This document shows positions 7,441 to 53,159 of a stretch of 64,000 nucleotides of DNA, one piece after another. This stretch comes from Mobula hypostoma. Its lineage: Eukaryota. Location of the stretch: NCBI RefSeq assembly GCF_963921235.1, contig NC_086097.1, positions 1,922,001-1,986,000 on the forward strand. Direction: 5' to 3'. The translations under genes were made by a program, and so were the position numbers. Below the pieces are notes generated by a model, which was given only the letters and a program-made list of their open reading frames with translations, ran no database searches and was not told the origin of the DNA. How positions within the stretch are numbered: position 1 is the first letter of the stretch; each line of letters opens with the position of its first letter.

Positions 7441-7980
7441 CACACATCAAAGTTGCTGGTGAACGCAGCAGGCCAAGCAGCATCTCTAGGAAGAGGTGCA
7501 GTTGACGTTTCAGGCCGAGACCCTTCGTCAGGAAGTCTCTAACTTCCGCTAAGGCCCCACCTCCCCCTCGTACCCCATCTGTTACTCATTTTTATGCACA
7601 CATTCTTTCTCTCACTCTCCTTTTTCTCCCTCTGTCCCTCTGAATATACCTCTTGCCCATCCTCTGGGTCACCCACCCCCCCGTCTTTCTTCCCGGACCT
7701 CCTGTCCCATGATCCTCTCGTATCCCCTTTTGCCTATCACCTGTCCAGCTCTCGGCTCTATCCCTCCCCCTCCTGTCTTCTCCTATCATTTTGGATCTTC
7801 CCCCTCCCCCTCCAACTTTCATATCCCTTACTCACTCTTCCTTCAGTTAGTCCTGACGAAGGGTCTCGGCCTGAAACGTCGACTGCACCTCTTCCTACAG
7901 ATGCTGCTTGGCCTGCTGCGTTCACCAGCAACTTTGATGTGTGTTGCTTGAATTTCCAGCATCTGCAAAATTCCTGTTGT
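7441..7980 (+). mobile_element. Penelope-like element 3' fragment with an inverted partial repeat at its 5' end
   Basis: 12-bp TSD TAGCAAAAGTAC (7429-7440, 7981-7992); 7536-7980 nearly identical to the region downstream of the GIY-YIG ORF at ~50710-51160; 7441-7533 is an inverted copy of part of it. Confidence 0.88.
7848..7885 (+). ncRNA. Minimal type I hammerhead ribozyme motif (Penelope-associated)
   Basis: AGTC-CTGACGA-AGGgtctcggCCT-GAAAC-GTC-GACT: both core boxes, stems I and II, palindromic ACGT stem III, GUC cleavage triplet. Confidence 0.8.
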
Positions 7981-8275
7981 TAGCAAAAGTACGATCACAT
8001 TGGTTCTCCATCTCTGAAACTCAATTCCACTGGAAATCTGCAGTAGAGTACAGTTCCCAGCTGTGAATATATAGTTACCATACATAATTGAGGATGTGTT
8101 TCTAATCCTTGGACTGAAGTAGTGTACTGTCCATGACAGCTGACATGCAGAACATCTGCACTGAACCTTTCATTGTGTTTGTGGAATTCCACCAGAGTTC
8201 ACCCTTGTCCCAGTTTCACCTCTTATTTCTTTATTCTCAACTCATGATGTTTGTATCTCTCGTTTAAAATTAATA

Positions 8276-8956
8276 CAGTGGATTCCGGGTAACTGGGACA
8301 TGTTGGAACCAGTGTATGTTGGATGCCCCAATTAGATGAACTTTCATGGAAGTAGTTAAAAAGGTATAGAAAGACAAATTACCATTTAACTGAGTAACAA
8401 ATTATGTATTTAAATGAAATACAGAGCAAATTAAAACAGTACAAATAGCACTACAGTACTATAAAACTGTTATTAGTTGCAAATAGTTACCCATGGAGGA
8501 ATTCATCCAGTGTACATTGCCGTGTTCTTTTGATTGACTGTAAATAAGCAAAATCAGCGCAGATACATACCTAGGGTTGTGCTTTGGCTTGTGTCAAATA
8601 TTTTTGTGACTTCTTGGCAAGTGTCTGAAGTTTTCTAAAGTCAAAATAAAGGAATAACATTATCAAAAAATCACTATGTTTTGTATTGCAGTCCATCGGC
8701 CCAATTAGATAACGTAACACAAACGCACACAACTGATGCTATTTAAAAACTGTTCGTCCTAAACACGATGTAGAGTCTAATGACCACACAAGTGTGTGTA
8801 ACTGATGCTAGTTAGAAACTGTTCGGTCATTGTCTCCTGTCCCAATTAGGCGGTGTAGTGTCCCAAATAAACAAGGGAATCCTATTTTCTTGATTAGTTT
8901 CTGCTCTTTAAGAGTTGTCCCAAATAAACAGCTGTCCAATTAACCAGAGTCCACTG
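8276..8956. mobile_element. Non-autonomous Tc1/mariner-superfamily (pogo/Tigger-like) element
   Basis: TA|CAGTGGATTCCGGGTAACTGG ... CCAATTAACCAGAGTCCACTG|TA imperfect TIRs with TA TSD; no ORF. Confidence 0.8.
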
Positions 8957-9197
8957 TATTTTTGTTTTAATGTGTGTGACTTTATTTCTCATCTGGATGA
9001 AGAGGGCATTTGAGTGTGCTGTGCAACACAGTCAGTCATTTATGAGACTGGACAGTAAAGATGAAGTAGGTAAACGTGAGAGAGAAATTCTTATAATTGA
9101 ATGTGCTGGAAAGCTGTTATAAAGTGATACAGGCTTCTTCCCAGAATCTGTTTAGCACAGTGACTTGAACTTGCTGAAAAATCAAAAATCAAGAGCA

Positions 9198-9470
9198 AGG
9201 TTGTCACGGTAGCATAGTGGTTACTGCAATGCTGTTGCAGCTTGTGGTGTTGGAGTCTGGGATTCAGTTCCAGTGTCCTCTGTACATTCTGCCTGTGAGT
9301 GCGTGCATTTCCTTCAGGTGCTGTGGTTGCTTCCCACAGTCCAAGGACTTACCAGTTAGTAGGTCATTGTAAATTGTCTGTGATTGAGGTAGGGTTAAAT
9401 AGGTGTGTTGCTGGGGGGTAGAGCTCAGTGGGTCAGAGAGGGCTGTTCTGCACTGTATCTCTGAAGAAAA
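9198..9470 (+). mobile_element. tRNA-derived V-SINE-like element (relatives at ~4595-4660, 11345-11560, 47575-47790, 56095-56215)
   Basis: Degenerate A/B boxes, then core tttcc..ggtgct..ggtt.cttcccacagtccaa and shared tail ggtcattgtaaattgtc. Confidence 0.65.
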
Positions 9471-9497
9471 TAAAACACTTTTGTTCTTTCTGTTCAG

Positions 9498-9701
9498 AGT
9501 GAATTTGCAGCTCGCCTCAGTAAGATAGAGTGTGAGCGTCAAAGTCTCGCAGAAGCGCTGACAGCAGCTGAGAGAAAGGCGATTGAAGAGAAGAGGAGGG
9601 CAGAAGATCACCAGCAGCAGCTCAAACTTGCCAAGACCAGCCTGGATTCTGCTAAACAGGAACTGGTGGAGTACAAGCAAAAGGCCTCCCGAATCCTGCA
9701 A
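9498..9701 (+). CDS. GOLGA5: GOLGA5 exon (SEFAARLSKIECERQSLAE...YKQKASRILQ)
   Basis: ttctttctgttcag|...CAA|gtgagg, 204 bp, phase 0/0. Confidence 0.95.
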
Positions 9702-9859
9702 GTGAGGACAAAGTTATGAAGAAGTACAACAAACTTGTATATTTAGCTAAGTAATGTCAAATGGATAATTTATTATGTGGAACGTACTTTGAGCCACGAG
9801 GGTCCCAACTCAGCAATGGAGACAAATTACAGCCTATAAACATATACAACACATAATAG

Positions 9860-11190
9860 CATAACATAGAGCACTACAACATAGCAACAGGCTCTCTGCT
9901 CCACACCAAGTATTAACCTGTCTAGTCCCATCGACCTGCACCCAGGCCATAGCCCTCCAAACCCCTCCCTTCCATGTACTTCAACATAGAAAACCTACAG
10001 CACGATACAGTCCCTTCAGCCCACAAAGCTGTGCCGAACATGTCCCCACCTTAGAACTACCTAGGCTTACCCATAGCCCTCTATTTTTCTAAACTCCATG
10101 TAGCCATCCAGGAGTCTCTGAAAAGACCCTATTGTATCCACCTCCACCACAGTCACTGGCATCCCATTCCACGCGCTCACCACTCTCTGCGTAAAAAAAC
10201 TTACCCCTGATATCTACTCTGTACCTACTTCCAAGCATCTTAAAACTGTGCTCTCTCGAGTTAGCCATTTCAGCCCTGTGAAAAAGCCTCTGACTATCCA
10301 CACGATCAATGCCTCTCATCATCTTCTACACATTTGTACTAAATATTGAGATTAGCACTGCTTCCACAACTGGCAGCTTGTTCCATACTTTCACCACCCT
10401 CTAAATGACCAAGTTCCCCATGTGTTCTCCTTAAGCATTTCACCTTTCACCCTTAAACCCATGATATTTGCATTTACCCTATCTATACTCCACATAATTC
10501 TGTATACCCCTATCGAATCTCCCTCATTCTGTTATGTTTCTGTACTCCACATAATTCTGTATACCCCTATCGAATCTCCCTCATTCTGTTATGTTTCTGT
10601 ACTCCACATAATTCTGTATACCCCTATCGAATCTCCCTCATTCTGTTATGTTTCCGTACTCCACATAATTCTGTATACCCCTGTCAAATCTCCCTCATTG
10701 TGTTATGTTTCCGTACTCCACATAATTCTGTATACCCCTGTCGAATCTCCCTCATTGTGTTATGTTTCCGTACTCCACATAATTCTGTATACCCCTGTCG
10801 AATCTCCCTCATTGTGTTATGTTTCCGTACTCCACATAATTCTGTATACCCCTGTCGAATCTCCCTCATTGTGTTATGTTTCCGTACTCCACATAATTCT
10901 GTATACCCCTGTCGAATCTCCCTCATTGTGTTATGTTTCCGTACTCCACATAATTCTGTATACCCCTATCGAATCTCCCTCATTGTGTTATGTTTCCGTA
11001 CTCCACATAATTCTGTATACCCCTATCGAATCTCCCTCATTGTGTTATGTTTCCGTACTCCACATAATTCTGTATACCCCTATCGAATCTCCCTCATTCT
11101 CCTGTGTTTCAGGGAATGGAACCCTAACCCTAATCAATGTTTCCCTATAACTCAGGCCCTCAGGTCCCGACAACATCCTTGTCATTTTTT
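9860..11190 (-). mobile_element. Nested CR1 3' fragments hosting a minisatellite
   Basis: MMRGIDRVDSQRLF (10089..10322); aacatag tails. Confidence 0.75.
10484..11110. repeat. 57-bp minisatellite, about 11 copies
   Basis: Unit GTACTCCACATAATTCTGTATACCCCT(A/G)TCGAATCTCCCTCATT(C/G)TGTTATGTTTC(C/T); gives 19-aa periodic ORFs. Confidence 0.92.
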
Positions 11191-11709
11191 TTAGATGTGT
11201 AATTTGTGATGATCACTTTGGGAATAAGGAGTTAGAGTGCTCTATGGCTCGAAAGCATTGAGGTAGAGTAGAAAGTATTTAGAGAGCCTGGAATTGCTCT
11301 TGGAGAGGGTGATGAACAGTTATCCAACTAATCAAAAATCCCGATGGTTCAGCATCTGGCTCACTGCTCGGAGCATTGGAGTTTGCAGTTCAATTCTGGC
11401 ATCCCCTTTGAGAAGGCGGGTTAGCTCCCACAAGTTAAAGACGTACCAGTTAATAGGTTTGCAAATTGTCCTGTGATTAGACTGGGTTGCTGGGTGGCGC
11501 GGGTTGAAGGACCGCAAGGGTCTGTTCCACACTGCATGTCTAAATAAGTAAATAAAATTGTACCTGGCCCTCTCCGGCTTCTCTCACTGGGGCTCCCATT
11601 CCTGTGTTCCATTCAAATGACCAGATTCATTTGTGTAACATCTTCAATAAAGCTGAATTAAAAGTGAAGCATCTTACTGTCTAAAACATAGGCTAGTTCA
11701 GCACCACCG

Positions 11710-13295
11710 AAGTCCCTGGCCAGATGGTCTGCATCCCAGAATGCTTAAGGAAGTAGCCCAAGAAATAGTGGATGCATTAGTGATAATTTTTCAAAACTTG
11801 TTAGATTCTGGACTAGTTCCTGAGGATTGGAGGGTGGCTAATGTAACCCCACTTTTTAAAAAAGGAGGGAGAGAGAAATCGGGGAATTATAGACCAGTTA
11901 GCCTAACGTCGGTGGTGGGGAAAATGCTAGAGTCAGTTATCAAAGATGTGATAACAGCACATTTGGAAAGCGGTGAAATCATCGGACAAAGTCAGCATGG
12001 ATTTGTGAAAGGAAAATCATGTCTGACGAATCTCATAGAATTTTTTGAGGATGTAACTAGTAGAGTGGATAGGGGAGAACCAGTGGATGTGGTATATTTG
12101 GATTTTCAAAAGGCTTTTGACAAGGTCCCACACAGGAGATTAGTGTGCAAACTTAAAGCACACGGTATTGTGGGTAAGGTATTGATGTGGATGGAGAATT
12201 GGTTAGCAGACAGGAAGAAAAGAGTGGGAATAAACGGAACCTTTTCAGAATGGCAGGCGGTGACTAGTGGGGTACCGCAAGGCTCAGTGCTGGGACCCCA
12301 GTTGTTTACAATATATATTAATGACTTGGATGAGGGAAGTAAATGCAGCATCTCCAAGTTTGCGGAGGACACAAAGCTGGGTGGCAGTGTTAGCTGTGAG
12401 GAGGATGCTAAGAGGATGCAGAGTGACTTGGATAGGTTGGGTGAGTGGGCAAATTCATGGCAGATGCAATTTAATGTGGATAAATGTGAAGTTATCCATT
12501 TTGGTGGCAAAAATAGGAAAACAGATTATTATCTGAATGGTGGCCGATTAGGAAAAGGGGAGGTGCAACGAGACCTGGGTGTCATTATACACCAGTCATT
12601 GAAAGTGGGCATGCAGGTACAGCAGGCGGTGAAAAAGGCAAATGATATGCTGGCATTTATAGCAAGAGGATTCGAGTACAGGAGCAGGGAGGTACTACTG
12701 CAGTTGTACAAGGCCTTGGTGAGACCACACCTGGAGTATTGTGTGCAGTTTTGGTCCCCTAATCTGAGGAAAGACATCCTTGCCATAGAGGGAGTACAAA
12801 GAAGGTTCACCAGATTGATTCCTGGGATGGCAGGACTTTCATATGAAGAAAGACTGAATGAACTAGGCTTGTACTCGTTGGAATTTAGAAGATTGAGGGG
12901 GAATCTGATTGAAACGTATAAAATCCTAACGGGATTGGACAGGCTAGATGCCGGAAGATTGTTCCCGATGTTGGGGAAGTCCAGAACGAGGGGTCACAGT
13001 TTGAGGATAAAGGGGAAGCCTTTTAGGACTGTGATTAGGAAAAAATTCTTCACACAGAGAGTGGTGAATCTGTGGAATTCTCTGCCACAGGAAACAGTTG
13101 AGGCCAGTTCATTGGCTATATTTAAGAGGGAGTTAGATATGGCCCTTGTGGCTACGGGGGTCCGGGGTATGGAGGGAAGGCTGGGGCAGGGTTCTGAGTT
13201 GGATGATCAGCCATGATCATAATAAATGGCGGTGCAGGCTCGAAGGGCCGAATGGCCTACTCCACCTATTTTCTATGTTTCTATGTTTCTATGTT
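11710..13295 (+). mobile_element. 5'-truncated young CR1 LINE with an open RT frame (491 aa)
   Basis: ORF 11741..13216; catalytic motif reads FAED; (TTCTATGT)n tail. Confidence 0.93.
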
Positions 13296-13392
13296 AACAG
13301 AATGTTGCTGTTAGAGGGCAGAACTGAACAACAGCATTAGGCTCCTTTGAACTACTTTCACAGGGGGGGACACAAACTTTCATTTAAACTTT

Positions 13393-13644
13393 AAACAACA
13401 GGAATTCTGCAGATGCTGGAAATTCAAGCAACATACATCAAAGTTGCTGGTGAACGCAGCAGGCCAAGCAGCATCTATAGGAAGAGGCGCAGTCGACGTT
13501 TCAGGCTGAGACCCTTCGTCAGGACTAACTGAAGCCTTCAGTTAGTCCTGACGAAGGGTCTCGGCCTGAAACGTCGACTGCGCCTCTTCCTATAGATGCT
13601 GCTTGGCCTGCTGCGTTCACCAGCAACTTGGATGTATGTTGCTT
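13393..13644. mobile_element. Palindromic Penelope-like terminal-repeat insertion
   Basis: 109-bp inverted arms around 13535; flanking duplication TTCATTTAAACTTTAA at 13379-13394 and 13643-13658, overlapping the element ends by microhomology. Confidence 0.9.
13543..13580 (+). ncRNA. Hammerhead ribozyme motif, right arm of the palindrome (mirror copy on - at ~13490-13527)
   Basis: Same sequence as 7848-7885. Confidence 0.78.
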
Positions 13645-14544
13645 CATTTAAACTTTAATGTTTTTCACTGGTGCATTGCAATACTGGAATGTGGTCACTA
13701 GGTGGCAAGAATGAGCTTTATTTGATAGTTTTTAATTTTAATTGAGTAATTTTTGTATTTACCTTATCCCATCATGAGATGCTTTTGCAACTTCCCGGCA
13801 GAAAATGCCAATTTTAGATTAGACTCCTAAATATACAGTCAAGGTGTTTTAATTTGATATTATGTTTGAAAGGAGATTTGATAGAAGTACACAAAATTAT
13901 GAGGGGGCATAGATAGGGTAAATGCAAGCAGGTTTTTTTCCACTAAAGTTGGGTGGGACTACCCTATGGATTATGGGTTAAGGGTGAAAGGTGAAATCTT
14001 TAAAGTTCAAAGTAAGTTTATTATCACAGTACAACCCTGAGATTTGTTTTCTTGCGTACATACTCATTAATCCAAGAAAGGTAATAGAATCAGTGAAAGA
14101 CTGCACCCAACGGGAACGTGAGGGGAACTTGTTCACTTGGAGGATGTTGAGGGTGTGGAATGAGCTGCCAGCGCAGTTGGTGGTTGCAGAGTCAATTTCA
14201 ACGTTTAAGAGAAATTTGGATAGGCACATGGATTGGAGGGGTATGGAGGGCTATGGAATGGGAATAGCCAGATTAGTAGTTCAGGAAGGAAAGGCATATT
14301 TCTGTGCTGGAGTGTTCCATGACTAATGAATGGTTCACGTTGAGTAGGATGTCAAAATTGCATCAAAGAGGAGCAAGTGTAGTCCAGGTGATCCCCAGAT
14401 TACAGCTGTTTGGGTGTCAGAAATTTGCTTTAGAGTTCACAAACCACTACCCAAACTCTGCCCTTACAGTTCTGTGTGTGGAGGAAAATCATTTGTAGAC
14501 CATTTTCTTGAAAGCAATTCCCCCTCCCATAACATGGGTTTGCC

Positions 14545-15470
14545 AGTTGTTGACGAACTTGTATTGATGTGCAGTGAGGACTGAATAGACTGGTTGCATC
14601 ATGACCTGGTATGGAAACTCTAAAGCCTTTGAACAGAAAATCCTACAAAACGTACTGGATTTGGCCCAGTACCTCACGGGTAAAGCCCTCTCAACCTTTG
14701 AGCACATCTACATGAAATGCTGTCGAAGAAAAGCAGCATCCATCGTCAGAGACCCTCCCCACCCAGGCCATGCTCTTTTCTCACTGCTGCCATCAGGTAG
14801 AAGATACAGGAGCCTCAGGACACACCACCCGGTTACTATCCCACAACCATCAGGCTCTTGAACAAAAGAGGATAATGACACTCATCTATTGAGATGTTCC
14901 CACAACCAGTGATCTCACTTTAAGGCCTCTTTATCTTGTTATTTCATGCTCTCGTTTTTTATTGCGATTTATTTATGTTTGCATTTGCAGTTTGTTCTCT
15001 TCTATGGTCTTGCTCTTTCATTGATCCTGTTTACAGTTACTGTTCTATCGATTTGCTGAGTACTAAGAGGAATAGATAGAGTGGATAGTCAGCGCCTCTT
15101 CCCAGGGCACTACTGCTCAATACAAGAGGACATGGCTTTAAGGTAAGGGGTGGGAAGTTCAAGGGGGATATTAGTGGACGGTTTTTTACTCAGAGAGTGG
15201 TTGGTGCGTGGAATGCACTGCCTGAGTCAGTGGTGGAGGCAGATACACTAGTGAAGTTTGAGAGACTACTAGACAGGTATATGGAGGAATCTAAGGTGGG
15301 GGCTTATATGGGAGGCAGGGTTTGAGGGTCGGCACAACAGTGTGGGCCGAAGGGCCTGTACTGTGCTGTGCTATTCTATGTTCTATGTAAGCTCATAGGA
15401 AAAAGAATCTCAGGGTTGTCTGTGGTGACATGTATACACTGTGATAATAAATTGTACTTTGAACTTTCAA
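14545..15470 (+). mobile_element. L2/Rex-like LINE 3' fragment interrupted by a CR1 tail (15063-15387)
   Basis: HPGHALFSLLPSGRRYRSLRT motif; (tttgaac)n-like tail resumes at ~15455. Confidence 0.7.
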
Positions 15471-15583
15471 CAATGCAGGTGTCAATAGGCCTATATAAGG
15501 AATATTCATCGTTTTTCTCTGTTACCATACCAAAATTATTTAACACAAACTTGTTATCAAATCTTTATGCTGTTCTTCCACAG

Positions 15584-15754
15584 TCCAAAGAGAAACTGAT
15601 TAACAGCCTAAAGGAGGGTTCAGGGATTGAAGGTATTGAGAGCCATGCGATTAGCACACTGGAGCTGGAGGAGGTGCGGCATGAACGTGACATGCAGCGG
15701 GAAGAGATCCAGAGACTGTTGGGTCAGATCCAATCACTGAGGACAGAACTGCAG
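15584..15754 (+). CDS. GOLGA5: GOLGA5 exon (SKEKLINSLKEGSGIEG...SLRTELQ)
   Basis: ttcttccacag|...CAG|gtaggt, 171 bp; lies inside ORF 15368..15781. Confidence 0.95.
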
Positions 15755-15919
15755 GTAGGTACCTCTTGTCATCAGCTGTAAAACTCTTCCTGCTTGCTTG
15801 AGCTGTGACTGAACAAAGCACCACAAGATGGAAATGGCTCTGACAGGAAAACCTGGCATTTTGGCTCTGCGTTTCTCCATGGTGTGCTTTTTGGGTGGGA
15901 TTTTAAATGGGAGCCCAGT

Positions 15920-17250
15920 GAGTTGGGAGCAGAAATAGGCCATTCGGCCTTTCATTCTATCGTGGCTGATTTATTATTCCTCTCAACCCCATTATCCTGC
16001 CTTCTCCCCGTATCCTTTGATGCCCTGACTAACAATAAACTATCAACCTCTGCTTTATATATGCCCAGTGATTTGATCTCCACAGCTGTCTGTGGCAATG
16101 AGATTCACCACCCTCTGGCTGAAGAATTTCATATTGATAGAACACCCACACCACAGGAGTAAGCTCTTCGACCCATCAAGTCCAAGCCTAGTCCCATGGA
16201 CTTGCACCCTGACCATCGCCTTCCACACCTCTCCCATCCAAATTTCCCTTAAATGTTAAAATCAATGCGCATCCATCACTCACACTGGCTGCTTGTTCTG
16301 CAATGTCAGCACCCTCTGAGAGAAGAAGTTGCCCCTCATGTTCCCTGTAAACTCTTCACCTTTCACCCTTAACCCATGAACACTGTCTACTCTGGCTCTC
16401 TGGTTCCCATCCCCCTGCAACTCTAGTTTAACACTCCCCCCAACCCTGCCAGTGCAGCATTAGCAAACCTTCCACTGGGATATTAGTAATCTCTCTTCAG
16501 CTGAGGTGCTAACCATCTTTTCTGTACAGGTTTACAGTTCCACCTTCCCTGGAAGAGAGCCCAATGATCCAAAAATCTACAGCCCCCTCTCCTGCACCAA
16601 CTTCTTAGCTACGTGCTAAACTGTTTGATCTTCCTGTTTCCTTTTATATTCTTTTCCTCTAGAAACGAATGCTAATGTTGCATTTGGCTTCGTCACCACC
16701 AGTTCAACCTGCAAGTTAACCTTTAAGGAATCCTGCACAAGGATCCCAAAGTCCCTCTGTACCTCTGATTCTTGAACTTTCTCCCCATTCGGGAAATAGT
16801 TTACGTCTCTATTCCTTCTACCAAAGTGCATGATCAAACATCTCCCTACACTCTTTTCCATCTATCACTTTACCCTGTCTTTCAATCTGTCCAAATCTTT
16901 CTGCAGACTTCCTACTTCCTCAGCACTACCTACCTCATTCACCTTTCTTCGTATTGTCCCAACGAAGAATCGGTCCCAACACGGATCCCTGTGGATCATC
17001 TTTCTTCGTGTTGTCCCAACGAAGAATCGGTCCCAACACGGATCACTGTGGATCACCTTTCTTCGTGTTGTCCCAACGAAGAATCGGTCCCAACACGGAT
17101 CACTGTGGATCACCTTTCTTCGTGTTGGCCCAACGAAGAATCGGTCCTAACACGGATCCCTGTGGATCACCTCTCTTCGTATTGTCCCAACGAAGAATCG
17201 GTCCCAACACGGATCCCTGTGGAACACCACTAGTCACGGGCAGCTCCCTT
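15920..17250 (-). mobile_element. Mosaic of degenerate CR1 fragments
   Basis: MHFGRRN..VQDSLKVNLQV (16616..16861); GVPQG region at ~17200-17240. Confidence 0.7.
16942..17222. repeat. 57-bp minisatellite, about 5 copies
   Basis: Unit CTTTCTTCGTGTTGTCCCAACGAAGAATCGGTCCCAACACGGATC(A/C)CTGTGGATCAC. Confidence 0.9.
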
Positions 17251-17492
17251 TGTTCCCACTCTTTGCCTCATATCTGTGGTTCGACGTTTGGATGGGGTTT
17301 TAAATGGGAGCCCAGCGTTCTATTGAAAGATTGTTGGGAGACTTCCGGTAGCGCTCATGGAGTGAAGTCGCGTTCTTGACTCGCTCCATTACCTCTGAGT
17401 TTTTTCTCTCTATGGTCAGCTATACTTTAATTAACTATTAAGGCATCAATTTTTACAATACTTTGAATTAAACTGAATTCTCTGACAATTGG

Positions 17493-18392
17493 ATGATACT
17501 GAGATCGGCTATGTCTAAGAACGGGAAAGACGGCAAGGATGGTAAACCTCCGGTTAAACCGAAAGCTACGGATCTCCCTCCGACTGAATCACCGGTGACT
17601 TTGAAAGCGATATCGGAGTTAATTCAGAGGGAAATTTCAACCTCTGTTAGGGAGATGATTCGTACAGAAATTATGGGCTTTGTTAAAGACCTGATTCATA
17701 CGGAAATCTCAACTAAGTTCCAGAAAATTGCCGATTTAATTGATAAGATGCAAACATGTATTGCGGAACATCAGTCGGCTATATCTGATCTTCAAAAATC
17801 CGCGCAACAAGGTGAGCTTAAGATGGGGAAAATCGAAGAAACAATTAATGTAATGAAGAAGAAACTTGACTTTTTGACTTTTAAAAACTCTGACTTGGAA
17901 TCTAGAATGCGACGGCAGAATTTACGAATGATTGGCGTCAGGGAAGCCGTGGAAGCTAACAACCCTATGAAATATTTCTCCCAACTTTTAAAAGATGCAT
18001 TCCCTACTGTATTTCCTGACCAACCACCGCTACTGGATCGTGTTCACAGAATCCCATCATACTCGTCTAGGTCAGATAGACCTAGGCATGTTATCTTACG
18101 TTTTCATTACTTTCAAGACAAGGAGAGACTGTTTCGATTCGCTCGATCTAAAGGTTTCATTGATTTTTCGGATCTTAAGTTCCGATTTGTGGAAGATTTC
18201 AGTAAACCAATCTGGGACCAACGGGTCCGTTACAGATCCGTGATGTCGGAATTCTATAAGATGGATTTAAGACCAGCGCTGCTGTACCCTGCACGTCTAA
18301 GGATTCGCATGTTAGATGGAGCCCTTCGTTTTTTTGATTCTCCATCGGATGCCCAGAGTTATCTGGATCAACTTTCATCCTCAACATCTTAA
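17493..18392 (+). CDS. L1 ORF1p (coiled coil plus RRM/CTD)
   Basis: DLESRMRRQNLRMIG, LDRVHR, PRHVILRF, LLYPARLRI motifs typical of L1 ORF1p; start may be the ATG at 17511. Confidence 0.9.
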   Translation: MILRSAMSKNGKDGKDGKPPVKPKATDLPPTESPVTLKAISELIQREISTSVREMIRTEIMGFVKDLIHTEISTKFQKIADLIDKMQTCIAEHQSAISDLQKSAQQGELKMGKIEETINVMKKKLDFLTFKNSDLESRMRRQNLRMIGVREAVEANNPMKYFSQLLKDAFPTVFPDQPPLLDRVHRIPSYSSRSDRPRHVILRFHYFQDKERLFRFARSKGFIDFSDLKFRFVEDFSKPIWDQRVRYRSVMSEFYKMDLRPALLYPARLRIRMLDGALRFFDSPSDAQSYLDQLSSSTS

Positions 18393-19114
18393 TTGCCTTT
18401 TTTTAATTTTCTCCGTTGATCGGAGGCTGTGAATTGGTTGGTTTTAACTTTTCTGTGCCCTATTTGGGCAGAAAAGTTTACTTTCGATTTCTTAATATGG
18501 CTGCTAAACTTTCTTTTTAACTGCGTCATTTCTTTCTTTTCTCAGGGGATTCTGGGTGGTTACTTCCCTTTTGTCATCTTACGTATTTCCTGTGCGGCCT
18601 TAAATTTTGTAGTTTTTTTTAAATTTTATTCTGTTTTGCTTTTTATAATCATTTTATGTTAATAATCCTATTTTTTTTTGTTGCTGTGTCTATTCATGAG
18701 TTTGAGGTTTATTGTGGTTTTTTTTTAATATATACTTTCCGGCTTTTGTTCTGTTCTGTGTGTATTTTAATTGAGCTAACTTTTTTTTTACTTATTTTTT
18801 TACTGTTTTACAATTAGCTGATCCTTTTCATATTTATACCTTTTTTTTAGGGAGCGTATACCGGAAGTCATGGGGGTAGTTTTAGCGCTTGCTTCTTTCT
18901 GGCGGGTCTGCTTTAGATTTCGCCTTGGGGTCTTGGGGTGGGGGGTGGTGGGAGGGGCTTCACGTTTTAGTTCGTTTCTCTTTGGGCTATATACATTATT
19001 GAAGTATTGGTTGCGTCCTTTTCCCCGGTATCTTTTGTATGTTCTGTTTCCTCTCCGGGTTTGTGGGTCGCGCCTATTGTCAATCCTCCTTCTTGTGGGT
19101 TGACTTTAGGATTT

Positions 19115-22100
19115 ATGGAGTCTATTATTAATTTTGTCTCCTGGAATACTAATGGTCTTAATCATCCTATTAAAAGAAAAAAAGTTTTTAAAGTGTTCCG
19201 GAGACTTAAAGCACAAATTTTATTTTTACAAGAGACCCATGTACGGAGGGGGGACAGACTACGTTTTTTTAAATTCTGGAAGGGACAACAATTTCATTCG
19301 AACTCCAATGCTAAGATTCGAGGCGTCTCTATTTTTATAGACTCCTCAGTTACTTTTATACAACAAGATATTATCTCTGATCCGAATGGTAGATTTTTAT
19401 TGGTTAGTGGTTTACTATTTAATAAAAAAGTAGTTTTGGTTAATGTTTATGCTCCTAATATGGATTGTCCGGAATTTTATAAATCATTGTTTGATCAGTT
19501 TCCGAATTTGAACGAGTTTTCATTGATTTGGGGCGGAGATCTTAATACCTGTTTATTTCCAGCTTTGGACCGTTCGGCTCCTTTACGGACTTTACCTAAT
19601 AAATCTGCAAATTTGATTAATTTTTTCCTTTCTGATTCTGGGTCGACGGACATTTGGCGTTTTCTGCATCCTCAGGAAAAAGATTTTTCCTTCTTTTCAC
19701 ATGTTCATCATTCCTATTCAAGAATTGATTATTTTTTCATTGATTCTCGTCTCATTCCTTCAGTGATTAAATGTGATTATGATTCTATAACCATTTCGGA
19801 TCATGCTCCACTTAAGCTTTCTATTAAAATTATGGCCAATATACCAAACAATAGACAATGGCGTTTTAATTCGCTGTTGCTTCAGGACTCGGACTTTGTT
19901 AATTTTATGAATGAACAGATTGAGCTTTTTTTTACAATTAACCATACAGAAGATATTTCGGTTAACACTCTTTGGGACACTTTTAAAGCCTATATTCGGG
20001 GTCAGATTATTTCGTATTCCGTTGCTTTGAGGAAGAAACAGAAGCAGGAGGAGATGGCAATTGTGGACAAGATTAAAGAAATTGATAAGAAATATGTTAT
20101 GGCTCCTTCTGAGGAGCTATACAAACAAAGAACTGAACTTCAAATGGAACACAGTTTACTACTCTCGTCCTCGATTGTAAACCAATTAAAGAAAACAAGA
20201 AGTGATTTTTATGTTCACAGTGATAAAATTGGCAAGCTGCTGGCTAATCAATTGAAATCTAATTATGTTAAATCTCAAATCAATCAGATTTATAACCAAA
20301 ATGATCGATTGATATTGGATCATGTGGGGATTAATCAAACCTTTTGTGATTTTTATTCTTCTTTATATCAATCAGAGTCTCCTCGAGATTCTAAATATAT
20401 GAATGATTTTTTAGATAAGTTAGACTTCCCTCAGATTTCACAGGATATGTCTTCTTTATTAGATACTTCCATTACAATGGATGAGATTAAGAATGTTATT
20501 TTTTCTATGAATCTGGGGAAAGCTCCTGGCCCTGATGGGTTTACCGTTGAATTTTATAAATGTTTTGCTTCTTTATTGATTCCTTGGCTCTATAAGGTTT
20601 TTGAGGCTTCTTTGAAACTTGGTAAACTTCCGGAATCTTTTAATAGAGCATCAATTTCTTTAATACTAAAGAAGGATAAAGACCCTGCTCAATGTGCATC
20701 TTATAGACCAATATCTTTATTAAATGTTGATTCTAAAGTTTTTTCTAAGTTATTAGCAAATAGACTAGAAAAAGTACTTCCTTCTATTATTTCGGAAGAC
20801 CAAACGGGTTTTATTAAAGGTCGTTACTCTTTTTATAATATTCGTACATTGTTAAATATCGTTTATACTCCCTCACAAAATGTTCCTGAGTGTGTTATTT
20901 CTTTAGATGCCGAGAAAGCTTTTGATAGAGTAGAATGGCCTTATTTATTTAAGGTGCTTGAAATGTTTAATTTTAGCTTGAAATTTATATCCTGGATTAA
21001 ACTGTTATATCACTCCCCTGTAGCCTCGGTTCGTACTAACTCCTTAAACTCACCTTTTTTTCCTCTCTTTCGTGGTACTCGACAAGGCTGTCCTCTTAGT
21101 CCCCTATTATTTGATATTGCATTAGAACCTCTTGCAATTGCTATTCGAGAATCTTTAAATATTACTGGGATAACTCGGGGATTAAAGTCCCATAAATTAT
21201 CACTTTATGCTGATGATTTACTTTTATATATTTCTAATCCTGAGAGATCCATTCCTGCTGTTTTAGAGTTATTAGCACAATTTGGTCTTTTCTCAGGTTA
21301 TAAATTAAATCTTAGTAAGAGTGAACTTTTTCCGATTAATAAACATCTTCCCTTATATTATAAATTTCCATTTAAATTGATTAATAATTACTTTTCATAT
21401 CTTGGGATTAAAATTACTTGTAAACATAAAGATTTATTTAAGACTAACTTTTTACCATTAATAGACCATATTACTCAACTTTCATCTAAATGGTTTCCCT
21501 TATATTTAACTTTGATTGGTCGTATTAATGCAGTTAAGATGTTTTTTTTGCCAAAATTTTTATATGTGTTTCAGGCATTACCAATTTTCGTTCCTAAATC
21601 TTTTTTTGATAAAGTTGACTCTAAAATTTCTTCATTTATTTGGCAGAATAAGAATCCGAGACTGGGTAAAATACATTTACAGAAAGCTAAGAGAGATGGA
21701 GGTTTAGCATTACCTAACTTTAGATTTTATTATTGGGCTATTAATATTCGACATATGAAATTTTGGTTACTTGACCGGGACATACTATCTATTCCTAAAT
21801 GGGTAGCATTGGAATTACAATCTGTTCAGGGTTATACACTTGGTTCTATTTTAGGTTCCTCTCTTCCTTTTGATTCGAAACGCCTTAAGCAGGTCTCTAA
21901 CCCGATAGTTAAATATGCTTTGCGCATTTGGTTTCAATTCAGAAAATTTTTTGATCTTAATCAATTCGGGTTAGCGATTCCTATTTTAGGTAACATATTT
22001 TTTCCTCCCTCTTTTACGGATCGCGCTTTTCAAACTTGGAAGACTAAGGGTATTTTACGGTTTTTGGATTTATTTTTAGATGGTTCCCTTATGTCTTTTG

Positions 22101-24210: not shown

Positions 24211-24429
24211 GTATGTGTCAAAGTAAAATCAGGTTCAAGACCAAGTTTGTTGTCATTTCACTGTACATGTATACAACAAAATGAAACAAAATTCCTCCAG
24301 GCTGTGGTGACTCACAATACGTATCACACACAGCAGATAAAACAAAATATTAACACAAATAAGTTCACACAATATAAAATGCAAAATATTAACTAGTTTT
24401 GATAAAGCTTTGATTGTGTGATGGACCAC

Positions 24430-38827: not shown

Positions 38828-38930
38828 GTGCTCGTTTGAGAAGCGTCCCGGTTCTTTTTGGTGAACCAGATGGTTCAGTAGGAATGTATGGGAAAGTTCG
38901 CAAAGCTGCAAACACAATTGATCGATTCAG
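38828..38930 (+). CDS. GOLGA5: GOLGA5 exon (GARLRSVPVLFGEPDGSVGMYGKVRKAANTIDRFS)
   Basis: ctag|...AG|gtaagt, 103 bp, phase 1/2. Confidence 0.94.
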
Positions 38931-39098
38931 GTAAGTGTCTGCTGCTAACTATTTGTTCTAACATTTCTTTACTGAATCCGCAGTAATTGTGTACTTTTTG
39001 TGCACATTTGATTGGAACTTTATATTTCATAAGGTGATTTAATGTTTTATTTTCATTTTATTGATGGCATTCGAAATAACACCTCATGTCTTTCACAG

Positions 39099-39162
39099 CA
39101 TCCGGTTAGGAATTTTTCTGAGGAGATATCCAATCGCAAGGGTATTTGTAATTATTTATATG
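39099..39162 (+). CDS. GOLGA5: GOLGA5 exon (IRLGIFLRRYPIARVFVIIYM)
   Basis: tctttcacag|...ATG|gtgagt, 64 bp, phase 2/0; start of the transmembrane segment. Confidence 0.96.
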
Positions 39163-39338
39163 GTGAGTTTATTCTTTTACCAGTTACAATTTATGACTGA
39201 AGTATTATAGTATGTCATAGTGCTTAGGGTTTGACTTAGCTTAAAGCGTCTACTGGAATTAGTGGTCTCTGCCAGGCCGATGAGTTAATAGCACCACGGA
39301 AAACCTTTAATACCACACTGAGTTCAGACCTGTGTTTC

Positions 39339-39888
39339 CAACTGCTCTGTCTACACTGAACCGGGGGGGGGGGGGGTCACACAACTGCTCTGTCTACACT
39401 GAACCGGGGGGGGGTGACACAACAACTGTTCTGTCTACACTGAACCGGGGGGGGGGTCACACAACTGCTCTGTCTACACTGAACCGGGGGGGGGGGGTGA
39501 CACAACAACTGTTCTGTCTACACTGAACCGGGGGGGGTGACACAACAACTGCTCTGTCTACACTGAACCGGGGGGGGGGGGTGACACAACAACTGCTCTG
39601 TCTACACTGAACTGGGGGGGGGGGTCACACAACAACTGCTCTGTCTTTACTGAACCGGCGGGGGGGTCACACAACAACTGCTCTGTCTACACTGAACCGG
39701 GGGCGGGGGGGGGTCACACAACTGCTCTGTCTACACTGAACCGGGGGGGGGGGGTGACACAACAACTGTTCTGTCTACACTGAACCGGGGGCGGGCAGGG
39801 GGGGTCACACAACTGCTCTGTCTACACTGAACCGGGGGGGGGGGTCACACAACTGCTCTGTCTACACTGAACCGGGGGGGTCACACAA
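39339..39888. repeat. ~38-46-bp minisatellite with a variable poly-G tract, about 13 copies
   Basis: Unit ACAACTGCTCTGTCTACACTGAACC(G)nT(C/G)ACAC. Confidence 0.92.
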
Positions 39889-41074
39889 CCACAAATGTTC
39901 CAACTACACCGAACTCTTCATCGATGTTCCTGCTGCTGATGTCACACTGAATGAAATGGAGATTGAAAAATCTGATCTGAAAATGCAGCTGCATAAACCA
40001 CAGGCTGATGTGTTCACCCTCGGTGTTGGCTCCCAAGAAGTCTGAAGGATTCCCGTCAGGCCGTGTTGTGTCAACTCTCTTCATGGTCTGTCTGTCTGAG
40101 TGAATGATGAGTTATTCTCTTGAGCTGCTGACTGAAGGCAAAGATGAGAGTGAGATAAATTCTAAATACTCTTTATAAATATCACTCTTTTATTGCAGTC
40201 TTGCTAAGCCGAGGGTTAGAACATAGAGCATCGAACAGTCCAGCACAGAAACAAGCCCCTCGGCCCAACCAAACAACTTAATTAGTGATCAAATGGCCAA
40301 TTAAACTGATCCCTTCTGCCTACACAATCTCGATATCCCTCCATTTCCCTCACGTTCATGTACCTATCTAAACATCTCTTAAAAGCCTCTGTGTATCTGC
40401 CTCTACCCCACCCCGGCAGTGTATTCCAGGCACCTCACTACTCTCCGTTTGTAAAAACATTACTCCTCAGATCTCCTTTGAGGTTACCCTCTCTGACCTT
40501 TAATGCATGCCCTCTGATATTATAACTTTTTAGCCTGGGAAAAAAAGTACTGTCTGTCTACTCTCTGCCTTTCATAATCTTTTAAACTTCCATCAAATCT
40601 TCCCTCAGCCTGTTAGTAGCTATATGTCCATTCTGGTCTCTGTTTCCCAGCATTCTGCACTGAAGGACACGGGAAATGAGGTTGTCCTGCACAGCAACAT
40701 TTCGGCATAGCTGCACAGGTGTAGTCTGTTATTAGTTATAAATTGACAAGTGTTTGAAACTGGGGAATTCAATACTAATGATCCTGAAGTGCTGTGATAT
40801 TATATTGTTCAGCGTACCAACACACAATGCTCTGGAATTCATTACTGAGGAAGGTACAACTGGTGAGAGAAGTTCTGTTTGTCTCCACGTTTGGACAGTT
40901 GAGTGTGAGGAAGGATAAAGTCTGTTCTGACTAAAATCTACCCTGCCGATTACCTGCTCATTGCAGACAGGTTCAGTCACTTTTTGTTTGGACTCACAGT
41001 GCTGGCTACTAACTTAAAGGAAAAAAATGTGAGTTTAAATCTGTATTAAAATCACAATACAGAACTCAATTTAG

Positions 41075-42955
41075 ACCATCAGGCCATAAGACATAAGAGC
41101 AGAATTAGGCCATACAACCCATTGAGTCTGCCCCGCCATTCCATCACGGCTGATCCTGGATCCCACTCAACCCCACACACCTGCCTTCTCGCCATATCCT
41201 TTAATGCCCTGACCGATCAGGAAACTAACAACTTCCACCTTAAATATACCCATGGACTTGGCCTCCATTGCAGTCTGTGGCAGAGCGTTTCATAGATTTA
41301 CTACTCTGGCTAAAAAAATTCCTCCATACCTCTGTTATAAAGGGTCACCCCTCAATTTTGAGGCTGTGCCCTCTAGTTCTGGATATCCCCACCATAGGAA
41401 ACATCATCTCCACATCCACCCTATCTAGACCTTTCAACATTCAGTAGGTTTCAGTGAGATCTCCCCATAGTCTTTTAAATTCCAATGAGTACAGGCCCAA
41501 AGCTGCCAAATGCTCCTCATATGTTAACCCTTCATTCCTGGAATCATCCTTGTGAACCTCCTCTGGACTCTGCAATGACAACACATCCTTTCTAAGATAT
41601 GGGGTCCACAACTGTTGACAATACTCCCAAGTGAGGCCTGACTTGTGTCTTATAAAGGCTCAGCATTATCTCCTTGTTTTTATATTCTATTCCCCTTGAA
41701 ATAAATTCCAACGTTGCATTTGCCTTCTTTACCACAGACTCAACCTGTAAATTAACCTTCTGGGAGTCTTGCACGAGGACTCTCTCTGCACCTCTGATGT
41801 TTGAACCTTCTCCCCATTTAGACAATAGTCCGCACAGTTGTTTCTTTTACCAAAATGCATTACCATACATTTCCCAATGCTGTATTCCACCTGCCACATT
41901 TTTGCCCATTCTTCCAGTTTGTCTAAATTCTGCTGCAATCACATTGCTTCCTCAGCACTACCTACCCCTCCAACTATCTTCGTATCATCTGCAAACTTTG
42001 CCACAAAGCCCTCAATTCCATTATCTAAATCATTTACAAACAATGTGAAAAGTAGTGGTCCTAATACTGACCCCTGAGGAACACCACTAGTCACTGGCAG
42101 CCAACCAGAAAAGGACCCTTTTATTCCCAATCATTGCTTCCTGCCTGTCAGCCATTCCTCTATCCATGCCAGTATCTAAGATAGGATTTTATCTTGTTAA
42201 GCAGCCTCATGAGTGGCACCTTATCAAACGCCTTCTGAAAATCCAAGTAAATGACATCCACTGACTCTCCTTTGTCCACCCTGCTTGTTACTTCCTTGAA
42301 GAACTCTAACAGATTTGACAGGCAAGATTTCCCTCTACAGGAACCATGCTGACTTTGGCTTATTTTGTCATTAGTCTCTAACTACCTCAAAAGCTCATCG
42401 TTAATAATAGACTTTCTCAACCTCTGAGGTTAGGCTAACTGGCCTATAATTACCTTTCTTTTATCTTCCTCCCTCCTTAAAGAGTGGAGTGACATTTACA
42501 ATCTTCCAGTCCTCTGGGACCATGCCAGAATCAAGTGATTCTTGAAAGATCATGACCAAGGCATCCGTTATCTCTTCAGCAACCTCTCTCAAGACTTGGC
42601 CCAGCTGACTTATCCACCTTACCATCTTTCAGTTTGCCTAGCACTTTTTCCTATGTAATAGCAATGGCACTCACTCCTGCTCCCTGACACTGATGAACCT
42701 CTGACACACTACTAGTGTCCTCCACAGTGAAGCCAGATGCAAAATACCCAGTAAGTTCATTGGCCATTTCTTTGTCCCCCATTACTACCTCACCAGCATC
42801 ATTTCCCAGTGGTCCAATATCAAATCTCACCTTCTTTTTACTCTTGATATAACTGTAAAAACTTTTGGTATCCTGCTTTATATTATTGGCTAAACTGCCC
42901 TCACATTTCATCTTTTCCCTTCTCATAGCTCTCTTAATGCTTTTTGCTGGATTTT
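41075..42955 (-). mobile_element. Degenerate CR1 LINE in the last GOLGA5 intron
   Basis: GVPQGSVLGPLLF, FADD (41939..42130); KSFYSYIKSK (42651..42926). Confidence 0.88.
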
Positions 42956-43144
42956 ATATGGGCCTGTTGGGTTTGACACAGCTACAGGGTGTGAATGGTG
43001 AAGAGGCCCACTAATAAATCCTGCAGCCCAAACTACTGAAAACTGATTGTTAGTGAAACTCTCTGATTTTCTCAAAATCATAGAGTAGATGCTTCTCTCA
43101 ACATTTCCTTACCCTGTTTGGTTAAAAGATTATTTCTCTTGTAG

Positions 43145-43231
43145 GTGCTGCTGCACTTGTGGGTGATGATAGTGCTCCTGACTTACACCCCGGAGATCCA
43201 CCATGGTTCCTCACAACCGGGCGGCAAGTGA
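43145..43231 (+). CDS. GOLGA5: GOLGA5 terminal coding exon (VLLHLWVMIVLLTYTPEIHHGSSQPGGK*)
   Basis: tttctcttgtag| acceptor; TM helix with the golgin-84 LHLWV motif; TGA at 43229-43231. Confidence 0.96.
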   Translation: MLLHLWVMIVLLTYTPEIHHGSSQPGGK

Positions 43232-50072: not shown

Positions 50073-51163
50073 CTGCTGTCACTCCATCCTCCCGCCACCC
50101 CACTAGGAATAGGGTTCCCCTGGTCCTCACCTACCACCCCACCAGCCTCCGGGTCCAACATATTATTCTCCGTAACTTCCGCCACCTCCAATGGGATCCC
50201 ACCACTAAGCACATCTTTCCCTCCCCCCCCCTGCATCCGCAGGGATCGCTCCCTACACAACTCCCTTGTCCATTCGTCCCCCCCATCCCTCCCCACTGAT
50301 CTCCCTCCTGGCACTTATCCGTGTAAGCGGAACAAGTGCTACACACGCCCTTACACTTCCTCCCTTACCACCATTCAGGGCCCCAAACAGTCCTTCCAGG
50401 TGAGGCAACACTTCACCTGTGAGTCGACTGGGGTGATATACTGCGTCCGGTGCTCCCGATGTGGCCTTTTATATATTAGCGAGACCCGACGCAGACTGGG
50501 AGACCGCTTTGCTGAACATCTACGCTCTGTCCGCCAGAGAAAGCAGGATCTCCCAGTGGCCACACATTTTAATTCCACATCCCATTCCCATTCTGACATG
50601 TCTATCCACGGCCTCCTCTACTGTAAAGATGAAGCCACACTCAGGTTGGAGGAACAACGCCTTATATTCCGTCTGGGTAGCCTCCAACCTGATGACATGA
50701 ACATCGACTTCTCTAACTTCCGCTAAGGCCCCACCTCCCCCTCGTACCCCATCTGTTACTCATTTTTATGCACACATTCTTTCTCTCACTCTCCTTTTTC
50801 TCCCTCTGACCCTCTGAATACACCTCTTGCCCATCCTCTGGGTCCCTCCCCCCCTTGTCTTTCTTCCCGGACCTCCTGTCCCATGATCCTCTCGTATCCC
50901 CTTTTGCTTATCACCTGTCCAGCTCTTGGCTCCATCCCTTCCCGTCCTGTCTTCTCCTATCATTTTGGATCTCCCCCTCCCCCTCCCCCTCCAACTTTCA
51001 AATCCCTTACTCACTCTTCCTTCAGTTAGTCCTGACGAAGGGTCTCGGCCTGAAACGTCGACTGCACCTCTTCTTACAGATGCTGCTTGGCCTGCTGCGT
51101 TCACCAGCAATTTTGATGTGTGTTGCTTGAATTTCCAGCATCTGCAGAATTCCTGTTGTTTGC
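50073..51163 (+). mobile_element. 5'-truncated Penelope-like element (GIY-YIG endonuclease end plus 3' repeat) nested in CR1
   Basis: PCKRNKC..HFTCESTGVIYCVRCSRCGLLYISETRRRLGDRFAEH; TSD GTACAAA(G/A)TAAAT at 50060-50072 and 51164-51176. Confidence 0.9.
51027..51064 (+). ncRNA. Hammerhead ribozyme motif downstream of the GIY-YIG ORF
   Basis: Same core; sense to the Penelope ORF, about 300 nt after its stop. Confidence 0.8.
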
Positions 51164-53012
51164 GTACAAAATAAATGGCAGGATACTTGGTAGTGTGGAG
51201 GAGCAGAGGGATCTCGGGGTACATGTCCACAGATCCCTGAAAGTTGCCTCACAGGTAGATAGGGTAGTTAAGAAAGCTTATGGAGTGTTAGCTTTCATAA
51301 GTCTAGGGATAGAGTTTAAGAGTTGCGATGTAATGATGCAGCTCTGTAAAACTCTGGTTAGGCCACACTTGGAGTACTGTGTCCAGTTCTGGTCGCCTCA
51401 CTATAGGAAGGATGTGGAAGCATTGGAAAGGGTACAGAGGAGATTTACCAGGATTTGCCTGGTTTGGAGAGTATGCATTATGATCAGAGATTAAGGGAGC
51501 TAGGGCTTTACTCTCTGGAGAGAAGGAGGATGAGAGGAGACATGATAGAGGTATACAAGATAATAAGAGGAATAGATAGAGTGGATAGCCAGCGCCTCTT
51601 CCCCAGGGCACCACTGCTCAATACAAGAGGACATGGCTTTGAGGTAAGGGGTGGGAATTTCAAGGGGGATATTAGAGGAAGGTTTTTTACTCAGAGAGTG
51701 GTTGGTGCGTGGAATGCACTGCCTGAGTCAGTGGTGGAGGCAGATACACTAGTGAAGTTTAAGAGACTACTAGACAGGTATATGGAGGAATTTAAGGTGG
51801 GGTGTTATTTGGGAGGCAGGGTTTGAGGGTCAGCACAACATTGTGGGCTGATGGGCCTGTACTGTTCTATGTTCTGTGTTCTTTAAAAGTGGAATACTCT
51901 TGAAGAGATTTTTCGCAGTGCTCAACAAAAGTATATTCCAGTCAAAAGTAAGGATAGTAAGTGGGGAGAGCCAGCCCTGGATAACTAAGGATATAAAAGA
52001 TAGTATCAAATTAAAAGCTCATGTGTACAAAGTCGCAAAGAGTAGTGGGAGACTGGAGGATTGGGAGAACTTTAAAAAGCAACAAGAGAACAACGAAACA
52101 AGAAATAAGGAAGGGGAAGATAGAGTTTGAAAGTAAATTAGCCCAAAATATAAAAACGGATAGCAAAAGTTTTTATAAATATATAAAGCGGAAAAGGGTG
52201 GCTAAAGTTAACGTAGGTCCCTTGGAAGACGAGAAGGGAGATTGATATTGGGTGATAAGGAAGTGGCTGAGGCATAAAATGGCTATTTTGTGTTGGTCTT
52301 CACGGTGGAGGACACGTCTAATATGCCAAAGAATGATGTTATGGATGAAATGGGAGGTGAGCACCACGATAAAATGAGCGAACTAGAGGGCCTGAAGGTA
52401 GATAAGTCCCCTGGTCCTGATGGGTTGCATCCCAGGGTACTGAAGGAATTGGCAGAGGTTATAATACCATAGAACCATAGAAACTACAGCACAGAAACAG
52501 GCCTTTTGGCCCTTCTTGGCTGTGCCGAACCATTTTCTGCCTAGTCCCGCTGACCTGCACACGGACCATATCCCTCCATACACCTCCCATCCATGTATCT
52601 GTCCAATTTATTCTTGAATGTTAAAAAAGAACCCGCATTTACCACCTCGTCTGGCAGCTCATTCCATACTCCCACCACTCTCTGTGTGAAGAAGCCCCCC
52701 CCAGTGTTCCCTTTAAACTTTTCCCCCCTCACCCTTAACCCATGTCCTCTGGTTTTTTTCTCCCCTTGCCTCAGTGGAAAAAGCCTGCTTGCATTCACTC
52801 TATCTGTACCCATCATAACTTTATATACCTCTATCAAATCTCCCCTCATTCTTCTACACTCCAGGGAATAAAGTCCTAACCTATTCAACCTTTCTCTGTA
52901 ACTGAGTTTCTCAAGTCCCAGCAACATCCTTGTAAACCTTCTCTGCACTCTTTCAACTTTATTTATATCCTTCCTGTAATTTGGTGACCAAAACTGAACA
53001 CAATACTCCAGA

Positions 53013-53159
53013 AACAACAGGAATTCTGCAGATGCTGGAAATTCAAGCAACACACATCAAAGTTGCTGGTGAACGCAGCAGGCCAAGCAGCATCTATAGG
53101 AAGAGGCGCAGTCGACGTTTCAGGCCGAGACCCTTCGTCAGGACTAACTGAAGGAAGAG
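53013..53159 (-). mobile_element. 147-bp Penelope-like 3' terminal insertion nested in CR1
   Basis: 11-bp TSD AATACTCCAGA at 53002-53012 and 53160-53170; splits the CR1 LEYCVQFW motif. Confidence 0.9.
53109..53146 (-). ncRNA. Hammerhead ribozyme motif
   Basis: Reverse complement of the same core. Confidence 0.78.

Follow-up and report, generated by a model that had tools for sequence, protein, structure and literature searches.

Truncated insertions of an abundant Penelope-like element with minimal hammerhead motifs at the GOLGA5 locus of Mobula hypostoma

Hammerhead motifs and insertions at the locus

The stretch of DNA analysed here, called the window below, comprises 64,000 nucleotides of Mobula hypostoma (assembly GCF_963921235.1, contig NC_086097.1, positions 1,922,001 to 1,986,000; positions are counted from its first letter) and carries the golgin gene GOLGA5 as well as four insertions, A to D, of a Penelope-like element (PLE), each flanked by a target-site duplication (TSD) and together harboring six hammerhead motifs (Table 1). 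A 25-nt hammerhead core has six matches in the window at up to three mismatches, five of them exact and one with a single mismatch (C3 at 7853, 13548 and 51032 on the plus strand and at 7531, 13522 and 53141 on the minus strand), whereas none of 100 dinucleotide shuffles of the window contained any match. A structural descriptor recovers five complete motifs, compared to one match in total across 20 approximate shuffles. A chance origin or an assembly artefact of the motifs is ruled out by these shuffles and by the distinct flanks and TSDs. Note that the motifs had already been predicted from the letters of the window: six motifs in four TSD-flanked insertions are confirmed, their coordinates being right within one or two bases (exact for 13490-13527 and 53109-53146) and the cuts 3' of 7880 and 51059 being correctly placed. 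The predicted starts at 7848, 13543 and 51027 hold for the U of stem I, whereas the AGTC assigned to them begins one base later, and the minus-strand copy said to lack stem I at about 7497-7533 is indeed present at 7499-7533, but misses only the 5' arm of that stem and carries G1.1 changed to A.

The complete motifs consist of a stem I of 5 bp (UAGUC/GACUG), CUGACGA, a bulged A, stem II (GGGU/GCCU) with the loop CUCG, GAA and C17. All six motifs show an ACGU palindrome in place of helix III and the bulged A between positions 9 and 10.1, and the CUGANGA and GAAA boxes and the UH cleavage triplet are present as for a minimal type I hammerhead. Stem II is closed by a G10.1-U11.1 wobble in all six cases, as opposed to the highly conserved, although not absolute, G10.1-C11.1 pair. 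As judged from these features, the six are minimal type I hammerhead ribozyme motifs (min-HHRs) located in the pseudo-long terminal repeat (pLTR) of a PLE, with cleavage itself being predicted; the assignment to a PLE with a minimal type I hammerhead of dimer-type architecture, which was part of the original prediction, is thus supported. Checking by covariance models or a descriptor had also been proposed, and only the latter succeeded: Rfam yields no match at gathering level in the whole window, and in 50500-53500, searched up to E<=10, it returns three weak matches, all of them unrelated and none a hammerhead, which may be explained by the missing helix III.

The insertions were delimited by self-alignment of the window and a search for TSDs, which are 64-88% AT. 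Insertions C and D minus one TSD align gap-free to sibling CR1 copies (97.6% over 167 nt and 73% over 171 nt, respectively), as expected for empty sites. The direct arm of A contains the last codons of the open reading frame (ORF), the 3' untranslated region (UTR), the hammerhead and the tail, while B carries a full tail on its minus arm and a plus arm which is about 35 nt shorter at the 3' end. Projected onto C, direct arms reach 51159-51161, and the two inverted arms, those of A and B, terminate at about 51122 and 51126-51128. The latter therefore stop 33-39 nt short, an offset representing the tail signature of PLEs. The 5' ends of four of the six arms lie at 51014, 51019, 51020 and 51030 (three of five independent events), 2-18 nt upstream of the core and not at the cut site. 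All six arms cross the cut site and the core, suggesting that their RNA templates were uncleaved. None of the four insertions in the window contains a direct tandem pair of motifs. The inverted two-armed insertions with their tail offset, the location of A and B within GOLGA5 introns and the huge, age-layered family behind them are missing from the original prediction.

Table 1. Positions of the PLE-derived features, their older relatives and the host gene in the window.
Feature	Position	Strand	Remarks
Insertion A	7441..7980	both	inverted arm 7441-7533 (-), 93 nt, then 5'-truncated direct arm 7536-7980 (+), 445 nt
TSD of A, left and right	7429..7440 / 7981..7992	+	12/12 bp identical
Hammerhead core without 5' arm of stem I, G1.1 changed to A (A)	7499..7533	-	core match
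Complete minimal hammerhead (A)	7848..7885	+	core match and descriptor; predicted cut 3' of 7880
Insertion B, head-to-head inverted pair	13395..13642	both	arms 13395-13534 (-), 140 nt, and 13536-13642 (+), 107 nt
TSD of B	13379-13394 / 13643-13658		16/16 bp
Complete minimal hammerhead, one loop II change (B)	13490..13527	-	predicted cut at 13495
Complete minimal hammerhead (B)	13543..13580	+	core match and descriptor; predicted cut 3' of 13575
Insertion C, 1.1-kb 5'-truncated PLE within CR1 reverse transcriptase	50073..51163	+	
TSD of C	50060-50072 / 51164-51176		12/13 bp (one mismatch)
Broken PLE ORF end (C)	50073..50726	+	linker, CX4CXXC finger, GIY-YIG with CCHH
Predicted competing hairpin (C)	51013..51043	+	-10.5 kcal/mol, z -1.97; pairs CUGA and start of stem II
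Complete minimal hammerhead (C)	51027..51064	+	core, descriptor, alignment and covariation; C17 = 51059
PLE tail	51123..51161	+	on direct arms; not on inverted arms of A and B
Insertion D, solo end fragment within CR1	53013..53159	-	147 bp
TSD of D	53002-53012 / 53160-53170		11/11 bp
Complete minimal hammerhead (D)	53109..53146	-	core match and descriptor; predicted cut at 53114
Older relative, linker and GIY-YIG fragment	28262..28983	+	78% DNA identity to C; stops, frameshifts, no 3' end
Older end fragment with decayed hammerhead	57954..58067	-	76% identity
Very decayed head-to-head pair of end fragments	24452..24643	both	nhmmer E 0.0009 and 0.008
Weak older-layer traces	57837-57920 and 32780-32817		
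Host gene GOLGA5 (golgin-84)	3613..43228	+	nine coding stretches, residues 270-743

Insertion C identifies the class of the element. In agreement with the predicted position of its hammerhead downstream of a GIY-YIG ORF, the frame ends at 50726, 305 nt before C3. The ORF fragment is damaged by a frameshift near 50230, a change of YIG to YIS and the exchange of the last finger Cys for Arg, yet it is 92% identical to P0003, a protein of M. hypostoma with reverse transcriptase (RT) and endonuclease (EN) parts that shows YIDD, GIY-YIG and both Zn-finger motifs. A homology search gave 20 matches among 397 candidates, including relatives in Hypanus and sharks. The CCHH motif of copy C and its relatives consists of a CxxC located between GIY and YIG and of two His; by Pfam, GIY-YIG is weakly matched in copy C (E 0.033), with the relative P0008 attaining the cut-off. 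An RT lies upstream in the same ORF in P0003 (YIDD) and P0008 (RVT_1, E 9e-5) and is not found in the truncated window copies, the RVT_1 match at 49542-50060 being part of the CR1 target and not of the PLE. The linker finger reads CKRNKCYTC in P0003 and CKQNKCYTC in the older relative at 28262-28983. By motifs alone, the family would be classified as a Neptune-type endonuclease-bearing (EN+) PLE, the linker finger being common to Neptune and Nematis. The ORF of the ray PLE is also contained in NCBI gene models of sharks and rays named as mucin-2, DIPK1C, RTP3-like or CHID1 (P0005, P0006, P0012 and P0015), which are probably annotation artefacts.

Conservation, age and surroundings

Contigs from four of 24 sequencing runs, representing four organisms, were aligned to positions 50960-51163 (204 bases). 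The runs contain 3,908 to 19,844 records each, and these thousands of records in each of the four indicate that the family is very abundant. The loose contig ends listed for each of the four include 51028 and 51064, where stem I has its outer edges, suggesting that other subfamilies share the 37-nt motif and differ beyond it. Further loose ends among those listed lie at 51127 (one run) and 51161-51162, together with several opposite-strand joints at 51117-51124. Among the variants listed, differences in the flanks frequently concern 20-99% of the depth. Within the motif, changes amount to 8-19% at N7 and 1-13% in loop II; U11.1 is replaced by C in 21-77%, a one-sided exchange that yields G-C as in the canonical motif. 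Transitions at CpGs affect G12, C15.2, G16.2, C17 and G1.1 (2-23%), and stem I changes occur in single runs at 51062 (8.7%) and 51063 (35%). G12 is the general base of the hammerhead ribozyme. The motif is thus more conserved than its flanks between subfamilies, which had been proposed as a check of the original prediction. We read this pattern as selection on the motif in the source elements, with inserted copies presumably decaying neutrally.

The conservation extends to distant relatives. In an alignment of five window motifs with eight motifs from outside, the catalytic bases C3, U4, G5, A6, G8, A9, G12, A13, A14, A15.1 and U16.1 are invariant from the ray to these relatives, whereas position 11.1 is C in all eight outside motifs and U in the window. 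A set of 27 metagenome loci with related ORFs was searched over 900 nt after the ORF match: both boxes were present by a loose pattern in ten loci, and a strict descriptor matched in five. One contig (L048:269-3513) holds a complete Neptune-type unit of pLTR, 936-aa ORF and pLTR with a minimal hammerhead carrying an ATAT palindrome in both repeats; this distant relative is the only case in which two directly repeated pLTRs were observed. In four other loci, likewise distant relatives (L066, L067, L068 and L072), both boxes follow the ORF, but the bulged A-G with which stem II begins is missing. In viral contigs, no core matches were detected and none of 62 candidate stretches proved to be a relative; a degenerate tail pattern gave 45 matches, which were rejected as chance (best blast E 0.073); this pattern missed even the young copies. 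As separate observations, a pyrimidine tract followed by AG|ATG lies at 51066-51082 (+), about 20 nt past the predicted cut, and occurs likewise in the loose-end consensus of another subfamily; it could provide a candidate acceptor (51078-51079) of an intron in the 5' UTR of the PLE. An initiator-like TCAGTT is present at 51022-51027.

The family is layered in age and very abundant. The six arms of the young layer are 94.4-98.6% identical, the two arms of a pair agree in 91 of 93 and 105 of 107 positions, and the TSD copies in 51 of 52, corresponding to about 1% divergence per copy; the CR1 copy hosting C is 97.6% identical to its sibling. At the rate given for the epaulette shark (7e-10 per base per generation; PMC10587355), 1% corresponds to about 1.4e7 generations, a value that stems from another species' rate and is an overestimate because of CpG decay and RT errors. 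The low divergence bears out the proposal of a recently active family only in a relative sense, as the ray lineage is probably slow-evolving and low divergence would be no proof of present activity.

As regards the surroundings, A and B lie within introns of GOLGA5, and C and D 7-10 kb past its last coding exon. One GOLGA5 exon is 99% identical to that of Mobula birostris; a tenth weak match to the gene at 22355 was discarded as spurious. A GOLGA5 intron also contains an apparently intact L1-type element (17472-22891, +) with an ORF1 of 306 aa (Transposase_22) and an ORF2 consisting of an open 1306-aa frame with APE endonuclease, RT and zf-RVT domains. CR1 copies make up much of the window, among them two RT copies at 11902-13167 (+) and 56532-57797 (-), which are 96% identical, inverted, 43 kb apart and retain long open frames. 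Minisatellites occupy 4116-4537 (32-nt unit), 10372-11226 (57), 16882-17285 (57), 37015-38300 (35) and 39325-39925 (about 42).

Origin of the insertions and capacity of the motifs to cut

The four insertions are very probably dead-on-arrival, 5'-truncated copies of a very abundant Neptune-type PLE, with the hammerhead belonging to the pLTR of the element. A tandem source element would be transcribed, as suggested by the literature, and its RT-endonuclease would nick the two strands of an AT-rich target at positions 11-16 bp from each other and begin reverse transcription from two points within the RNA that are separated by about 35 nt, as shown for an anole PLE. One-ended events may then have produced the solo arms C and D, and two-ended events the inverted pairs A and B with the tail on one arm, which is the observed pattern, with the template RNA apparently remaining uncleaved. 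The conservation suggests that source elements retain the motif as a ribozyme which acts slowly, with the help of a dimer partner or a protein, and processes tandem transcripts, while the window copies would be passengers decaying neutrally.

Several points weigh against this explanation. All runs consist of contigs and none is recorded as RNA; depth does not translate into copy number, and conserved pieces are matched preferentially. The variants listed are 40 of 62, and the loose ends listed leave out 694 others. The T-to-A change at 51063 in 35% of one run's depth would break a stem I pair unless compensated. No core is present within 900 nt in 17 of the 27 related loci, some of which are too short, distant or decayed, and no full-length element exists in the window. 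The stem covariation of the alignment (94.8% paired, two-sided changes in six of seven pairs, a score reached by none of 500 shuffles) is partly circular, because the set was chosen for the core and six of the eight outside motifs had passed a descriptor requiring pairing. Finally, the active dimer is calculated at -11.5 kcal/mol (-16.7 with C11.1) versus a cofold minimum of -30.3, with an energy model that ignores tertiary contacts, and folding energies are not decisive.

The best surviving alternative, although still unlikely, is that the motif is kept for a non-catalytic role, such as an RNA fold for RT binding, a promoter or a splice signal, and that its G10.1-U11.1 version no longer cleaves. 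The divergence at position 11.1 between the outside motifs and the ray family is consistent with this, as are the absence of any arm beginning at the cut site and of a start peak at 51060 among the loose ends listed. In the study of the anole element (PMC11167929), catalytic mutants inserted unimpaired in vitro and the cut site was not the end of any RNA-seq read from Anolis, and Naiads are described as thriving without canonical hammerheads (PMC8557442). However, the G-U still pairs, and the invariance of the catalytic bases up to distant relatives is hard to explain without selection on chemistry.

A further reading would treat the pLTR as an RNA switch, in which the competing hairpin at 51013-51043 holds the hammerhead off in the template RNA and stops or turns the RT, explaining the arm starts. 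The modelled hairpin covers the interval in which four of the six arms begin (51014-51030), and we regard the idea as unlikely. If true, the very many near-identical copies of the family would allow 5' ends mapped across the genome (51014-51030 versus 51060) to serve as a fossil assay of how frequently the hammerhead cuts in vivo.

It is highly improbable that the inserted copies themselves are active ribozymes cutting host transcripts such as the GOLGA5 pre-mRNA, either as monomers or as dimers in trans. Core and stems are intact in five motifs, two of which are sense-oriented in GOLGA5 introns, the abundance of the family could supply partners, and the hammerhead of the anole PLE is reported to cleave with the element's protein added (PMC11167929). 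But A and B are predicted to fold into hairpins of 93 and 107 bp on either strand, burying both motifs of each intronic copy; the active fold was never obtained in single-sequence folding (z -0.26 to 0.69; z -1.24), core bases pairing in alternative helices in the monomer folds; and in copies of the family both G12 and the ACGU palindrome undergo decay. For Schistosoma, cleavage of a single min-HHR was not detectable and the activity of dimers was only low (PMC4209133). As far as the models reach, none of the four truncated copies is arranged so as to cut itself. The suggestion that the ribozyme may still work is therefore not upheld for the window copies, which lack a tandem pair, have their motifs buried in the hairpins of A and B, retain a broken fragment as their only ORF part and belong to a family whose copies decay at CpGs of the core.

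That the short inserts B and D belong to a separate non-autonomous family (retrozyme or short interspersed element (SINE)-like) with its own RNA unit, as might be suggested by the four arm starts within 17 nt (51014-51030) and by the derivation of vertebrate non-LTR retrozymes from PLE pLTRs (bioRxiv 10.64898/2026.07.22.740005), can be dismissed as most improbable, since there are no tandem units, which define retrozymes, and no fixed 5' end, the 5' ends varying among copies whose arms share 94-99% identity with the terminal part of C, the copy that bears the ORF fragment.

The dead-on-arrival copies of the PLE are nevertheless of value, because a high-copy, low-divergence vertebrate PLE with countable insertion ends could show whether PLE hammerheads cut in vivo, with G10.1-U11.1 as a natural variant suited to assay. 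The inverted intronic copies moreover add long double-stranded RNA to the host pre-mRNA.

Relation to known systems

A PLE pLTR with a minimal hammerhead is a kind of element already known, described in 2014. No description of the ray family was found in the literature searched, although Repbase, Dfam, supplement file 1 of PMC4209133 or the bioRxiv supplements may list it, and supplement file 2 of PMC4209133, as far as accessible, contains no shark or skate names. Among fishes, min-HHRs have been reported for PLEs of the Xena, Poseidon and Neptune groups (Cervera & De la Pena 2014, PMC4209133), and the ray motifs share with them the type I core without helix III, the palindromic 15.2-16.2, the unpaired base between 9 and 10.1, a stem I of 4-5 bp, the location in the pLTR and the occurrence mostly as dispersed single copies. 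They differ in their short stem II (4 bp), which is closed by G10.1-U11.1 instead of the conserved G-C pair.

Non-LTR retrozymes (bioRxiv 10.64898/2026.07.22.740005), which have been reported in one chondrichthyan genome, are likewise PLE-derived and carry a type I hammerhead, but they consist of tandem units each with a hammerhead, and no such units occur in the ray insertions. The Neptune-clade EN+ PLEs (Craig et al. 2021, PMC8557442) share the C-terminal GIY-YIG with CCHH and the CX2-5CxxC linker finger as well as 5' truncation, an adjoining inverted copy and a tail of 30-40 bp on one end, whereas the ray targets are AT-rich and not microsatellites. The arrangement of inverted arm, tail and TSD has been described for PLEs (PMC8557442, PMC3846280). 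In Penelope elements of Adineta vaga (Arkhipova et al. 2013, PMC3846280), an inverted pLTR with tail and TSD and head-to-head palindromes are found as in the ray, with a 31-bp tail and TSDs of 8-10 bp compared to TSDs of 11-16 bp and much shorter inserts in the ray.

The anole PLE nicks and extends both strands, and its RT has two internal start sites, one on either side of the tail (Frangieh et al. 2024, PMC11167929). This element, Poseidon PAc of Anolis, belongs to the Poseidon clade without a linker finger and its ORF starts inside stem II, whereas the start of the ray ORF is not in the window. It resembles the ray family in the start sites bounding the tail, the AT-rich targets, the unprocessed RNA template and the hammerhead in the pLTR, and the near identity of the ray copies has its counterpart in D. 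virilis (PMC4209133).

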